Positions 48,543 to 52,351 of a stretch of DNA of 64,000 bases are shown here, one piece after another. Position 1 is the stretch's first letter. Every line of letters starts with the position of its first letter. The notes under the pieces were generated by a model, which ran no database searches, had not been told where the DNA came from, and worked only from the letters and a program-made list of their open reading frames with translations. Origin of the DNA: Gaiellaceae bacterium (GTDB lineage: Bacteria; Actinomycetota; Thermoleophilia; Gaiellales; Gaiellaceae). The stretch lies in contig DASREW010000032.1 in NCBI GenBank assembly GCA_035651895.1, forward strand, positions 18,584 to 82,583, read 5' to 3'. The position numbers were made by a program, and so were the translations under genes.

Positions 48543-50050
48543 GTACGGCGGCGACCGAGAATCCGCTCGCCGAAGGCCTCCGGCTTCGCCGCCGGCCGGA
48601 CCCGTGCATCCTCGTCATCTTCGGCGCGTCGGGCGATCTCACCTCGAAGAAGCTCCTGCCGGCGCTGTACGCGCTCGCCGTGCGCGGTCTGCTGCCGGAG
48701 AAGTTCGGCATCGTCGGCGCCGCGCGCACCGAGGAGACCGACGACGAGTTTCGCGAACGGATGAAGCAGGCGGTCAAGGACCACGCGCGCGATCAGTTCG
48801 ACGAGGAGACCTGGGACAAGCTCGCGACGGGGATGCGCTACGTCACGCTCGACTTCGCCGACGACAAGGGCGAGGACGAGCTGCGGGACGCGCTGACGAA
48901 GCTCGACGAGGAGCAGGGCACCGGCGGCAACCGGATGTACTACTTCGCGGTCCCGCCGAGCGCGATCGGCACGCTCGTCGAGGAGATCGCCGAGCGCCGG
49001 AACGCCGAGGGCTGGGTCAGGCTGATCATCGAGAAGCCGTTCGGGCACGACCTCGCGTCGGCCGAGGCGCTCAACGCCGAGATCAAGGAGCACTTCGCGG
49101 AGAACGAGGTCTTCCGCATCGACCACTATCTCGGCAAGGAGACGGTGCAGAACATGCTGGCGCTGCGCTTCGCGAACGGCATCTTCGAGCCGATCTGGAA
49201 CCGTCAGTTCATCGACCACGTGCAGATCACGGTCGCCGAGTCGATCGGGATCGAGAACCGTGCCGGCTACTACGAGCAGGCGGGCGCGATCCGCGACATC
49301 TTCCAGAACCACCTGCTGCAGCTCGTCGCGATCACGGCGATGGAGCCGCCGATCGACTTCACCGCCGACTCGGTGCGCAACGAGAAGGTGAAGGTGCTGA
49401 AGTCGATGCACACGCCCGGGCCGAAGCACGTCGTGCGCGGCCAGTACGGGCCGGGGTTCGTCGAGGGCGAGGAGGTGCGCGGCTACCGCGAGGAGGAGGG
49501 CGTCGCACCGGGCTCGATGACGGAGACGTTCGTCGCGGCGAAGCTCTTCGTCGACAACTGGCGCTGGGCGGACACGCCGTTCTACGTGCGCATGGGCAAG
49601 CGGCTTGCGCGGCGAGAGACGACGATCGCGATTCAGTTCAAGCGTGCGCCGCATCCGCCGTTCGAGGACGGCGCGGCGGAAGGGTTGCGGCCGAACGTGC
49701 TCCTCATTCACGTACAGCCGAACGAGGGCATCTCGCTCGCGATCGGGGCGAAGGTGCCGGGGCAGGGGATGACGATCCGCACCGTGCACATGGACTTTCT
49801 CTACGGCGGTGCGTTCCGCGAAGGCCTCCCGGACGCGTACGAGCGGCTGATCCTCGACGCGATGCTCGGCGACGCGACGCTGTTCACGCGCTCGGACGAG
49901 ATCGAGGAGCAGTGGGCGCTCGTCGACGCGATCGTCGCGTTCTGGCAGCGCGACCGTCCGTCGTTCCCGAACTACGCCGCGGGGACGTGGGGGCCGGCAG
50001 CGGCGGATGACCTCCTGCACCGGGACGGACGGTCGTGGCGCCGACACTGA
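48539..50050 (+). CDS. zwf: Glucose-6-phosphate 1-dehydrogenase
   Basis: 503 aa: FGASGDLTSKKL, RIDHYLGKETVQN. The GTG overlaps the gnd stop. Confidence 0.93.
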   Translation: MSTAATENPLAEGLRLRRRPDPCILVIFGASGDLTSKKLLPALYALAVRGLLPEKFGIVGAARTEETDDEFRERMKQAVKDHARDQFDEETWDKLATGMRYVTLDFADDKGEDELRDALTKLDEEQGTGGNRMYYFAVPPSAIGTLVEEIAERRNAEGWVRLIIEKPFGHDLASAEALNAEIKEHFAENEVFRIDHYLGKETVQNMLALRFANGIFEPIWNRQFIDHVQITVAESIGIENRAGYYEQAGAIRDIFQNHLLQLVAITAMEPPIDFTADSVRNEKVKVLKSMHTPGPKHVVRGQYGPGFVEGEEVRGYREEEGVAPGSMTETFVAAKLFVDNWRWADTPFYVRMGKRLARRETTIAIQFKRAPHPPFEDGAAEGLRPNVLLIHVQPNEGISLAIGAKVPGQGMTIRTVHMDFLYGGAFREGLPDAYERLILDAMLGDATLFTRSDEIEEQWALVDAIVAFWQRDRPSFPNYAAGTWGPAAADDLLHRDGRSWRRH

Positions 50051-50919
50051 TCGAAGACTCGTGGACCGGCGAGGACACGACGGTCGCAGAGATCGAGCGC
50101 GAGCTCGCCCGCCTGCGCTACGAGTCGTCGAGCGAAGGCTCGCAGCCGAATCTGCGCACGTCGGTGATGACGCACATCGCGTGGGTGCCGCCGCAGTGGC
50201 AGGTCGCCGCGGAGGAGACGCTCTCCGGGATGGCGGAGCGGCATCCGTCGCGCACGCTGCTGCTCGTGCCGAAGCCGGACGAGCCCGACGGGCTCGACGC
50301 GCTGGTCTCGATCCGCTGCTTCCCGGTCGGCGACCGGGCGATCTGCGGCGAGGTGGTCGAGCTCACGTTGCGCGGGACGCGAGCAGCGGCACCGGCGTCG
50401 ATCGTGCTGCCGCTCTTGATCTCGGACCTGCCGGTGTTCTGCCGCTGGCGCGGCGAGCCCGACTGGGACTCGGCGGAGCTCGACCAGCTGATCGGGGTCA
50501 TCGACCGGCTGATCGTCGACTCGACGGAGTGGGAGAAGCTGCCGGTGCCCTATGAACGGCTGGTGCAGCTCTTCGACCACGTCGTCGTGTCGGACATTGC
50601 GTGGGACCGCACCGAGCGGTGGCGCACGCTGCTCGCGTCGTTGTGGCCGGAGATCGGCTCGGTCGAGCGCGTGCGCGTCCACGGCACGGCCGCGCAGGCG
50701 TACCTGCTCGCCGGCTGGCTGCGTTCGCGCCTCGGTCACGACCTGGAGGTGGAGATCGACGAGCACGAGACGCTCGAAGGCGTCGACCTCGACGGCAAGC
50801 CGGCGAAGTTCCCTCCCGGCAGACCGCCCGGCGCGAGCGATGTCCTCTCCGCGCAGCTCGACCGCTTCGCCCGCGACCGCGTCTACGAGGACGCGGTGCG
50901 CGCTGCCGTCGGCGTCTGA
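50035..50919 (+). CDS. opcA: Glucose-6-phosphate dehydrogenase assembly protein OpcA
   Basis: 294 aa, immediately after zwf and overlapping it by 16 nt. OpcA-like sequence LRTSVMTHIAW...LPVFCRWRGEP. Confidence 0.85.
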   Translation: MAPTLIEDSWTGEDTTVAEIERELARLRYESSSEGSQPNLRTSVMTHIAWVPPQWQVAAEETLSGMAERHPSRTLLLVPKPDEPDGLDALVSIRCFPVGDRAICGEVVELTLRGTRAAAPASIVLPLLISDLPVFCRWRGEPDWDSAELDQLIGVIDRLIVDSTEWEKLPVPYERLVQLFDHVVVSDIAWDRTERWRTLLASLWPEIGSVERVRVHGTAAQAYLLAGWLRSRLGHDLEVEIDEHETLEGVDLDGKPAKFPPGRPPGASDVLSAQLDRFARDRVYEDAVRAAVGV

Positions 50920-51610
50920 CAGCAGTCAGACACCTGTCTGACACACGCGACCGTGTCTTCTCTGCGCCGATTGTGTGAACGCGCTCGACGCGACCGCCGG
51001 GCTCCGGCACCGTGGCGGGATGGCTCCGCCTCGACTCGAGATCCCCGGCGCGATCTATCACATCAACAGCAAGGCAGTGCACGGAGCGAAGTTGTTCGTC
51101 GACGACAGCGACCGTTTCCTCTTTCTTCGGTTGTTGAAGCGTGAGGCGATCCGAAGTGACTGGTGCGTCCTCACGTACTCGCTGATGACCACGCACTTCC
51201 ATCTCCTATTGCGCCTCGAGAAAGCGTCCCTGAGCAGCGGCTTCCACGCTCTCAACTCGCACTACGCGCGGCTGTACAACCGCCGGCACGACCGGCGCGG
51301 CGCTCTGTGGCAGCGCCGCTACTTCGACTCCATCGTCGAGACCGAGCGACATCTCTTCGAGGCGGTGCGCTACATCGCACTGAATGCACCACGGGCCAGG
51401 ATCTGCAGTGACGCGCACGAGTGGCCATGGTGTAGCTACGGCGCTGCGGTCGGTCTCGCGCCGGCCGATCCGATCGTCAACGAGCGAGAGCTCCTGCGCC
51501 TCTTCGGGACACGTCCACGTGACGCACGACGGGCGTTGCGCAGGTGGGTCGAGAGTGCCGATCCGCGCTTCACTCCGAGTCAGACACGAACCTGACAGCT
51601 GTCAGACGCC
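50911..51610 (+). mobile_element. IS200/IS605-like or RAYT cassette: Y1 transposase gene bracketed by 29-nt imperfect inverted repeats built from GTCTGAC/GTCAGAC heptamers
   Basis: Left repeat 50914-50942 is GTCTGACAGCAGTCAGACACCTGTCTGAC. The reverse complement of the right repeat 51579-51607 is GTCTGACAGCTGTCAGGTTCGTGTCTGAC (24/29 identical). The outermost 13 nt, GGCGTCTGACAGC, are a perfect inverted repeat (50911-50923 / 51598-51610). Confidence 0.75.
51020..51595 (+). CDS. Y1 (HUH) transposase, IS200-like / REP-associated tyrosine transposase (RAYT)
   Basis: MAPPRLEIPGAIYHINSKAVHG. HUH motif in TTHFHLLLR and catalytic Tyr region AVRYIALNAPRA. I prefer ATG 51020 over the track GTG 50975. 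Confidence 0.8.
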   Translation: MAPPRLEIPGAIYHINSKAVHGAKLFVDDSDRFLFLRLLKREAIRSDWCVLTYSLMTTHFHLLLRLEKASLSSGFHALNSHYARLYNRRHDRRGALWQRRYFDSIVETERHLFEAVRYIALNAPRARICSDAHEWPWCSYGAAVGLAPADPIVNERELLRLFGTRPRDARRALRRWVESADPRFTPSQTRT

Positions 51611-52351
51611 GAGAAGTGAGACCACCTCGTCGTGGAGGAGGGAGTTCGTGGCGGCGAAGCTCTCGCCGGGCGCCGGAGCTGCGCCGGTGAAGGTCGTGCA
51701 GCGGCCGCCGGCCTCCTCGACGATCAGCGCGATCGCGGCGTAGTCCCACAGGTTCAGATCCGGATCGACCGCGACGTCGACCGCGCCCTCCGCGACGAGG
51801 CAGTACTGCCAGAAGTCGCTCAGCCCGCGCGTTGCCCAGGCCCGCGCCACCACGTCCGACCAGCCGGACGGCAGCTCGCGCGGGCTCGTCGTCGAGACGA
51901 ACGCGTCCTCGATGCGCGCCACCGACGACACGCGGCACGGAGACCCGTCGGCGAACGCGCCCTCGTCGCGCGCAGCCCACCAGCGACGCCCGAGCGCCGG
52001 CGCCGACACGAGCCCGGCCACGACGACACCCTCGCGCTCGAGTGCGAGCAGCGTCGCCCACACCGGCACGCCGCGCACGTAGTTCTTCGTCCCGTCGATC
52101 GGGTCGACGATCCACCGCGCGTCGCCGCCGTCGTCGCCGAACTCCTCGCCGAGCACGCGCTCGCCGCGCCCCGACGAGGCGACGAGCTCCCGCAGCGCCT
52201 CCTCGGCACCACGATCCGCCTCGGAGACCGGAGTGAGATCCGGCTTCGTCTCCACGCGAAGGTCGGCCGCGCGGAACCGCGCCAGCGTGATCGCGTCCGC
52301 CGCGTCGGCAAGCCGATGCGCAAACGCCAGATCCGCCGACACACCGCTCAC
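51602..52351 (-). CDS. hisN: Inositol monophosphatase family protein, histidinol-phosphatase HisN-like
   Basis: 249 aa: KPDLTPVSEADR, WIVDPIDGTKNYVRGVPVWATLLAL, LWDYAA. Confidence 0.8.
   Translation of the reverse strand: MSGVSADLAFAHRLADAADAITLARFRAADLRVETKPDLTPVSEADRGAEEALRELVASSGRGERVLGEEFGDDGGDARWIVDPIDGTKNYVRGVPVWATLLALEREGVVVAGLVSAPALGRRWWAARDEGAFADGSPCRVSSVARIEDAFVSTTSPRELPSGWSDVVARAWATRGLSDFWQYCLVAEGAVDVAVDPDLNLWDYAAIALIVEEAGGRCTTFTGAAPAPGESFAATNSLLHDEVVSLLGV

Follow-up and report, generated by a model that had tools for sequence, protein, structure and literature searches.

A probable REPtron/TIRtron cassette in Gaiellaceae: a single-copy Y1 gene whose inverted repeats hold the stop codons of the convergent genes opcA and hisN

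Introduction

In REPtrons, a gene encoding a TnpA-REP protein or REP-associated tyrosine transposase (RAYT) is flanked by repetitive extragenic palindromic sequences (REPs) (PDB 4ER8; Bertels 2017, PMC5581495; Quentin 2018, PMC6006769). RAYTs are single-copy and vertically inherited (PMC5581495), and each tnpA-REP has its own, paralogue-specific REP family (PMC6006769). In TIRtrons, RAYT-like genes (TIRYT) lie between terminal inverted repeats (TIRs) with the motif GGGGWSAS (Di Nocera 2013, PMC3733652; subclass 2.1, Quentin 2018), the repeat families are small and the repeats overlap the transposase 3' end (PMC3733652). REP termini that provide the stop codons of flanking open reading frames (ORFs) have also been published (Di Nocera 2013, PMC3733652). 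Here, we analyze a stretch of 64,000 nucleotides from an uncultured soil Gaiellaceae bacterium (assembly GCA_035651895.1, contig DASREW010000032.1), referred to as the window, in which a gene for a Y1 (HUH) tyrosine endonuclease stands between inverted repeat arrays and the convergent genes opcA and hisN. The assembly of the focal genome, G000, has 2.79 Mb in 36 contigs, 69.8% GC and about 80% completeness; its contigs are given C numbers, and the window is C32:18584-82583.

This cassette is, with good probability, a REPtron/TIRtron: a single-copy, host-retained Y1 (HUH) gene of the RAYT/TIRYT class with inverted arrays of its cognate repeat and an old vertical inheritance. It is not an ordinary insertion sequence (IS). 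As in REPtrons, the gene is single-copy, vertically inherited and under purifying selection, its cognate repeat stands in inverted copies on both sides and also at dispersed intergenic sites, several diverged Y1 paralogues in the genome each have their own repeat family, and the best hidden Markov model (HMM), profile and fold match of the protein is TnpA-REP. The cassette differs from REPtrons in repeats without a 5' GT[AG]G foot, which consist of 11-nt modules (GTCWGAC plus 4 nt) in arrays and not of one imperfect palindrome of 20-40 nt; in their number, a handful of sites in the focal genome and about 10-20 arrays in congeners instead of hundreds; in an NCBIfam score below the equivalog cut-off; and in its host, an actinobacterium. 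With TIRtrons it shares long inverted repeats unrelated to GTAG REPs, a small or moderate repeat family and a transposase gene whose 3' end runs into a repeat. Furthermore, GGGGTCAGACCCGGGTCTGACCCC, which flanks the genes of some congeners, fits GGGGWSAS; the motif is present at loci L065 and L070 of congeners and at L075, a more distant homologue. However, the outer repeat of the focal cassette, GGCGTCTG, agrees with this motif at 6/8 positions, and the protein is 191-200 aa long, against a median of 238, with no Pfam-detectable C-terminal helix-turn-helix (HTH). The Y1/HUH catalytic core and subterminal palindromes are also found in IS200/IS605 elements (IS608, ISDra2), but the focal cassette shares none of the further traits of these elements, which are multi-copy, show a Y---Q motif, frequently carry tnpB and lack synteny across species.

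Organization of the cassette

The cassette and its neighbours comprise five features:
50035..50919, plus strand: opcA, glucose-6-phosphate dehydrogenase (G6PD) assembly protein (Pfam OpcA_G6PD_assem 3.6e-21, OpcA_G6PD_C 1.2e-12)
50911..50955, no strand: left repeat array, three heptamers with an 11-nt period, then ACACACG...
51020..51595, plus strand: Y1/HUH tyrosine endonuclease gene, probable RAYT/TIRYT type, 191 aa (Pfam Y1_Tnp, orthologue alignment)
51579..51610, no strand: right repeat array, inverted copy of the left array
51602..52351, minus strand: hisN-like histidinol-phosphatase, inositol monophosphatase family (Pfam Inositol_P 6.9e-44)

A previous sequence-only reading of the window had described a Y1 HUH transposase between inverted heptamer repeats, and both coordinates and sequences agree with it, the middle right heptamer being degenerate. 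Each cassette end contains three GTCWGAC heptamers spaced by 11 nt, and the two arrays are mutually inverted. The left end reads GGC (50911-13), GTCTGAC (50914-20), AGCA, GTCAGAC (50925-31), ACCT and GTCTGAC (50936-42), and the right end GTCAGAC (51579-85), ACGA, the degenerate ACCTGAC (51590-96), AGCT, GTCAGAC (51601-07) and GCC (51608-10). The outermost 13 nt of both ends, GGCGTCTGACAGC, are a perfect inverted pair, as had been claimed, the 29-nt cores are identical at 23/29 positions in the inverted comparison, and a repeat search of the window stretches the inverted arms to 53 nt at 74%. GTCTGAC-N4-GTCAGAC, expected 0.02 times per window, was found once.

The two neighbouring genes end identically, with GGC-GTC-TGA inside the outermost heptamers, which confirms by sequence and ORFs the tails ...AVGV* and ...LLGV* read previously. 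The final codon and stop of opcA (protein tail ...AAVGV*) are GTC TGA 50914-50919, with the stop TGA at 50917-19, and those of hisN (tail ...SLLGV*) are GTC TGA on the minus strand at 51602-51607, with the stop as the complement of 51602-04. The Y1 stop, TGA 51593-95, falls inside the right array, also as first read, in its degenerate middle unit, and the frame ends early, 6 nt before hisN. No tnpB was found next to the Y1 gene among the window ORFs. The hisN product matched TIGR02067 HisN with 268 bits, slightly below the cut-off of 275.

The Y1 protein

The start of the Y1 gene was placed at ATG 51020 (191 aa) in preference to GTG 50975, because 20 orthologues start there. The tail of the focal protein is shortened. 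The Pfam scan gave Y1_Tnp (1.4e-8) alone, with no C-terminal HTH family matched, and the sole NCBIfam match was REP_Tyr_transpos (NF047646), with 72.6 bits for a curated (equivalog) cut-off of 80. NF047646 was matched by 20/20 orthologues (best E 8e-25), and transpos_IS200 weakly by 1/20 (E 0.002). In the alignment of these 20 orthologues, the catalytic HUH residues H59/H61 and the tyrosine Y118, in RYIALNAP, are invariant. The focal motif YIALNAP shows N at +4, A at +5 and P at +6, and YxxxNP is exact in 4/20 orthologues. Class 2 TnpA-Y1 proteins have the tyrosine motif Y---NP and IS200 has Y---Q (PMC6006769); the focal motif resembles the former in part and not the latter. Both catalytic motifs, T-H-[FY]-H for HUH and YIxLN[AP] for Y, are also similar to the patterns of subclass 2.1/TIRYT, but the focal TIR deviates from GGGGWSAS at two positions and the searches revealed no HTH tail.

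A phmmer search of PDB sequences with the single Y1 protein gave no match at E<=1, and the orthologue profile matched only E. coli TnpA-REP 4ER8 (E 1.3e-3). The AlphaFold2 model is confident, with a predicted local distance difference test (pLDDT) score of 91.7, and has short helices at 140-178. With this model, the top Foldseek result was 4er8_A (E 1.3e-7), aligned over 158 columns that include the region after the catalytic helix, while IS608, IS200 and ISDra2 rank behind it and match only a core of about 100-130 residues. Judged by HMM, PDB-profile and fold searches, the protein is nearest to E. coli TnpA-REP (4ER8) and not to IS200/IS608, so the choice between IS200 and RAYT posed by the first reading falls on the RAYT side.

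Inheritance of the cassette in the opcA-hisN slot

The slot was compared in 80 congeners (G labels are genomes, L labels are loci), with an orthologue threshold of E<=1e-40. A Y1 orthologue was present in 29/80 congeners, with 31 matches 42-71% identical to the focal protein, and 27 of these matches directly adjoin opcA, mostly in the order opcA-Y1-hisN. The ratio of nonsynonymous to synonymous substitution rates (dN/dS) of Y1 is 0.07-0.34, like that of opcA and hisN in the same genome pairs, and its dS is similar to or somewhat above theirs. In the opcA tree (midpoint root), occupied slots appear on both sides of the root, and slots without Y1 are scattered and nested among them; the starred branches force at least seven changes, and one row without Y1, L039, is a contig-end artefact. 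Empty slots nested within occupied clades are more simply read as losses, and an old resident cassette with repeated losses would be the simplest reading of the pattern. Y1 pseudogenes fill the slot in G076 and in G061, the sister of the focal genome. In G095, sister to the occupied genomes G009 and G058 in the opcA tree, the empty slot contains the lone hairpin CTCTGAG-cagg-CTCAGAC, from which hisN still takes its stop. We infer that a deletion from a heptamer unit of the left array to a direct unit of the right array would yield just such a hairpin.

The closest orthologue (65% identical) belongs to G001, which shows it with the same ends as the focal cassette at a different locus, after a GCS2-family gene; the whole unit therefore moved at least once. 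Such a move would suit an ordinary autonomous IS200/IS605-family IS that is present once by chance, as would the Pfam Y1_Tnp match and the palindromes at both ends. We nevertheless regard this explanation as very improbable. Full-length copies, which had been named as the sign of an ordinary IS, were absent: tblastn and blastn found no second copy of the cassette in the 36-contig, about 80% complete assembly. In addition, the slot is syntenic across the genus, the divergence of Y1 parallels that of its neighbours, the IS200 HMM is essentially unmatched, YIALNAP stands in place of Y---Q and tnpB is missing beside the gene. The domesticated RAYT proposed in the sequence-only reading is thus supported by the single copy, the match to REP_Tyr_transpos and not to the IS200 model, 4ER8 as the nearest structure and the arrays that track the gene, as described below.

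An apparent overlap of about 30 nt between the GCS2-family gene of the focal genome and a convergent neighbour (C12:78000-78031) lies within or beside an 18-nt perfect palindrome, GCGTCAGTCGACTGACGC, which holds the GCS2 stop. The relocated G001 cassette and this empty site were compared as a before/after pair, and the pair was rejected since divergence of the tails was too great for a target site to be defined.

The heptamer repeat family

At orthologous loci, both ends show three to five heptamers with an 11-nt period, either GTCWGAC or the variants GTCTGAG, CTCAGAG and CTCAGAC. In the clade with the closest Y1, left ends are T-A-T and right ends A-T-A (T, GTCTGAC-type unit; A, GTCAGAC-type unit), the same as in the focal cassette and in G001. 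The middle right unit is intact in relatives, e.g., L049 with GTCAGAC-acga-GTCTGAC-tcga-GTCAGAC. Where GTCTGAC/GTCAGAC is replaced by GTCTGAG/CTCAGAC, the change is compensatory and keeps the 7-bp stem. In another clade, each cassette end is the palindrome GGGGTCAGACCCGGGTCTGACCCC.

Counts per genome are 0-90 for STCWGAS-N4-STCWGAS and, for its reversed-pattern control, 0-2 in published genomes and 13 in the unpublished G078. The median number of phased heptamer pairs per genome is 20 with an orthologue versus 0 without, to which the cassette itself adds 2-5 pairs, and at least four pairs are found in 26/29 genomes with an orthologue versus 10/51 without. Since G078 enters both the orthologue and the pair tallies, the association was recomputed without it. 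The genome-wide count of palindromes proposed from the sequence alone gave a divided answer: across the 80 congeners a dispersed family tracks the gene, and in the focal genome this family is very small. G009 contains about 10 dispersed arrays of three to six units, several of them with an inversion point that gives long hairpins, such as G009:C3:157517-157578. The array G000:C23:20359-20387, with three direct heptamer units, is the positional orthologue of G009:C1:856088-856127 (L110), their collinear flanks being 75% identical over 2.1 kb, and each of the two follows the variant of its own cassette, GTCTGAC in G000 and GTCTGAG/CTCTGAG in G009. That orthologous arrays carry the heptamer variant of their own genome is evidence for homogenisation within genomes (concerted evolution).

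Single heptamers are not over-represented in the 2.79 Mb of the focal genome (GTCTGAC 64 and GTCAGAC 57, versus about 140 each estimated from base composition), so only phased arrays are informative. Dispersed sites include a solo copy of the left end, 45 nt long and 84% identical, at C13:353825-353869, with the outer GGTGTCCGACAG included; a GTCAGAC..GTCTGAC hairpin at C13:124817-124839, about 12 nt after tRNA-Tyr (124723-124804); and a perfect 30-nt palindrome, GGCGTCTGACACC..GGTGTCAGACGCC, at C14:17839 between convergent ORFs.

Several results weigh against the cassette being a REPtron/TIRtron. The focal family is tiny, with about four to six sites beyond the cassette and seven phased pairs, the cassette's own included. 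No canonical GTAG-footed REP (5' GT[AG]G) is found at the cassette ends, and the protein scores below the NCBIfam cut-off. The gene-array association, with a Mann-Whitney p of about 1e-9, is not corrected for phylogeny, and ten genomes without an orthologue hold 9-18 pairs, two of them with a Y1 pseudogene in the slot. In many orthologues, the right array consists of three direct units with no obvious hairpin. The hairpins previously predicted at both ends hold for the left end, which folds as single-stranded DNA into 7-10 bp (-8.3 and -10.5 kcal/mol, z -0.5 and -1.1), and hardly for the right end, where folding is weak (-3.8 and -5.6 kcal/mol); at both ends and on both strands the energies are not better than those of shuffles. 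The hairpin argument therefore rests on covariation in relatives and not on thermodynamics.

Part of these results would also fit arrays that are phased double-stranded DNA sites, iteron- or operator-like, for another protein, with Y1 as a decaying relic among them. A period of 11 nt would be about one helical turn of duplex DNA, direct right arrays lack a hairpin partner, the fold energies are unremarkable, arrays persist in some genomes without the orthologue, and in the focal cassette the right middle unit is degenerate and the Y1 tail shortened. We give this explanation little credence, because the invariant catalytic residues and low dN/dS indicate a gene that is not decaying, array abundance follows the presence of Y1, the compensatory GTCTGAG/CTCAGAC changes keep pairing, and dispersed arrays typically have an inversion point.

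Use of the repeats as gene ends

As described for REPs, the terminal bases of the focal repeat are the stop codon of the adjacent gene. The focal case differs in that the TGA lies inside a GTCTGAC heptamer, compared with the TAG of GTAG, and in that both inverted ends of one cassette serve two convergent neighbours simultaneously. REPs near stop codons reportedly cause ribosome stalling (Liang, Rudd and Deutscher 2015), and no claim made here rests on that.

Of the 35 loci having opcA and Y1, 22 show an opcA that terminates 5-40 nt ahead of the first heptamer at a TAA, TAG or TGA of its own, and in 13 opcA reads into the heptamer GTC-TGA. Nine of the 35 are the same stretch as another row (e.g., L056 and L003), and after collapsing them 17/26 loci show their own stop and nine the heptamer stop; the 22 include L052, from the unpublished G078, on which no conclusion depends. 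In congeners, opcA ends in ...RAAAA* at a TAA or TAG of its own. The transition can be followed in homologous spacers, from ...CGC TAA CCC CGG CGT CTG AC in L005 to ...GCG ACC CCC GGC GTC TGA in L010. Within the T-A-T clade, termination of opcA at the heptamer TGA is confined to the focal genome and its sister G061 and is therefore derived. hisN ends at GTC-TGA in the outermost right heptamer in 18 distinct tabulated loci, including the deep-branching L054, and by this distribution its fusion to the heptamer is older and widespread. An independent case is found in G001, where the GCS2 gene upstream of the relocated cassette stops at the TGA of the outer heptamer. In G009, none of the five dispersed arrays checked (0/5) donates a stop codon, so stop capture does not extend to the arrays in general. 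The Y1 frame of most orthologues crosses the right array (CGT CAG ACG, R-Q-T; tail ...DPRxRRRQTLLRRRSDAEQ), and the Y1 3' end overlaps the 3' end of hisN convergently by about 17-90 nt. The basic C-terminal tail of the enzyme would thus be encoded by its own putative recognition repeats, with the hisN overlap in most congeners.

The first reading had left two origins for the shared gene ends. In one of them, the native gene ends already formed a bidirectional palindrome, the cassette inserted into its loop, and the GGCGTCTGAC arms are host sequence. A palindrome with the same arms and no Y1 exists at G000:C14:17839 (GGCGTCTGACACCC..GGGTGTCAGACGCC between convergent ORFs), the focal GCS2 gene ends at C12:~78010-78031 within GCGTCAGTCGACTGACGC and its G001 orthologue's end carries the relocated cassette, and the empty G095 slot is a single hairpin that still gives hisN its stop. 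We consider this origin unlikely, as the outer unit belongs to a dispersed repeat, with GGTGTCCGACAG inside the solo copy on C13, in relatives a native opcA stop precedes the first heptamer, the nested empty slots are more simply losses and the G095 hairpin fits a deletion between direct units; the original insertion is older than the genus radiation and cannot be reconstructed. The consensus scan of 50600-51900 gave no sigma-70-like promoter and no intrinsic terminator, so that a classical bidirectional terminator at the opcA/hisN junction is not supported. The other origin, in which the element ends replaced the native C-termini, is better supported, by the native TAA or TAG of opcA upstream of the first heptamer in many congeners, by the outer GGYGTCYGACAG as part of the repeat family (solo copy C13:353825-353869) and by the nested empty slots.

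Y1 paralogues and other occupants of the slot

Four RAYT-like Y1 paralogues, 25-32% identical to the focal Y1, were found in G000:
C4:26598-27104
C35:33688-34200
C27:113004-113435
C32:174858-175376 (outside the window)

Every one of these genes has a hairpin of its own on either side (CGGTGCCNGGCACCG; CCCTTCCCWGGGAAGGG; GGAACTTAGTTCG..CGAACTAAGTTCC; CGWCGCCAAACGACG), and each palindrome has its own dispersed family of four to about 11 loci. A separate GTAG-plus-hairpin element family of this genome has none of the five Y1-flanking motifs searched for, and no such motif lies within its range. Three of the hairpin families have a conserved tail adjoining the stem, GT(G/T)AC(A/C)(A/G)AAGTG, which from its conservation may be a common cleavage or guide module beside a variable hairpin. 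Sites of the hairpin families that include this tail are:
C1:80865, C1:33349, C10:18963, C2:188298, C2:66431, C13:114596 and others

The same slot is occupied by a different Y1 lineage in L041 (G001, 37% identical), with palindromes GGGACAGG..CCTGTCCC, and in L036 (G011, 48% identical), with palindrome GGGGCCAGGTACGTACCAGGCCCC; both sets are unlike the focal repeats. The opcA-hisN slot looks like a hot spot in which occupant and repeats are replaced together. The gaps without Y1 in L015 (G006) and L022 (G084) show other direct repeats around 100-130 nt of non-coding DNA, GTAACCCTTGCTTGGGAACGG twice in L015 and GGGGTCAGACCC-CGACCTGTC twice in L022, which may be remnants of other elements. In addition, a conserved GGACACTGGCG is located about 20-40 nt before the Y1 start in L006-L010, L021 and L061 and is lacking in the focal copy; from its position it may be a promoter or regulatory element.

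Discussion

In the history that we propose for the REPtron/TIRtron, the cognate repeat consists of 11-nt modules, each around a GTCWGAC heptamer. The cassette would have resided in the convergent opcA/hisN slot since the early radiation of this Gaiellaceae genus and been inherited vertically. Each heptamer presents a TGA when read inward, and through small deletions or the loss of native stops the frames of opcA and hisN could have extended into the outermost heptamers, so that the element now gives a Val-stop to both genes. By analogy with TnpA-REP and its REPs, the enzyme is predicted to bind and cleave single-stranded DNA hairpins of inverted heptamer pairs, and this cleavage might spread or homogenise the dispersed arrays. 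The system may be only weakly active in the focal genome, because arrays are few there and the right middle unit is degenerate.

A bolder proposal, which we hold as rather doubtful, is that the heptamer modules are a distinct, undescribed REP architecture of Thermoleophilia that co-evolves with the RAYT. Co-evolution is suggested because arrays at orthologous loci carry the heptamer variant of their own genome, and the repeated capture of arrays as gene termini would be possible because every module has an inward-reading TGA; the overlap of the Y1 tail with hisN could couple RAYT expression to that of the neighbour.

The cassette is a clear, if ordinary, representative of an already known element type, and it does not overturn the current understanding. 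What sets this case apart is a repeat architecture of 11-nt heptamer modules, the host lineage, and two convergent genes that use both inverted ends symmetrically. For annotation, the 3' ends of opcA and hisN are to be taken as repeat-derived, and the "transposase" should not be called an IS. The REPtron/TIRtron picture would thereby be extended to uncultured soil Gaiellaceae (Actinomycetota), with a natural series at one conserved slot: occupied, with a Y1 pseudogene, empty, and with the occupant replaced. This series shows the long persistence of a host-retained Y1 endonuclease with its repeats, the loss of the gene leaving one hairpin, and the adoption of repeat bases as stop codons by neighbouring genes.

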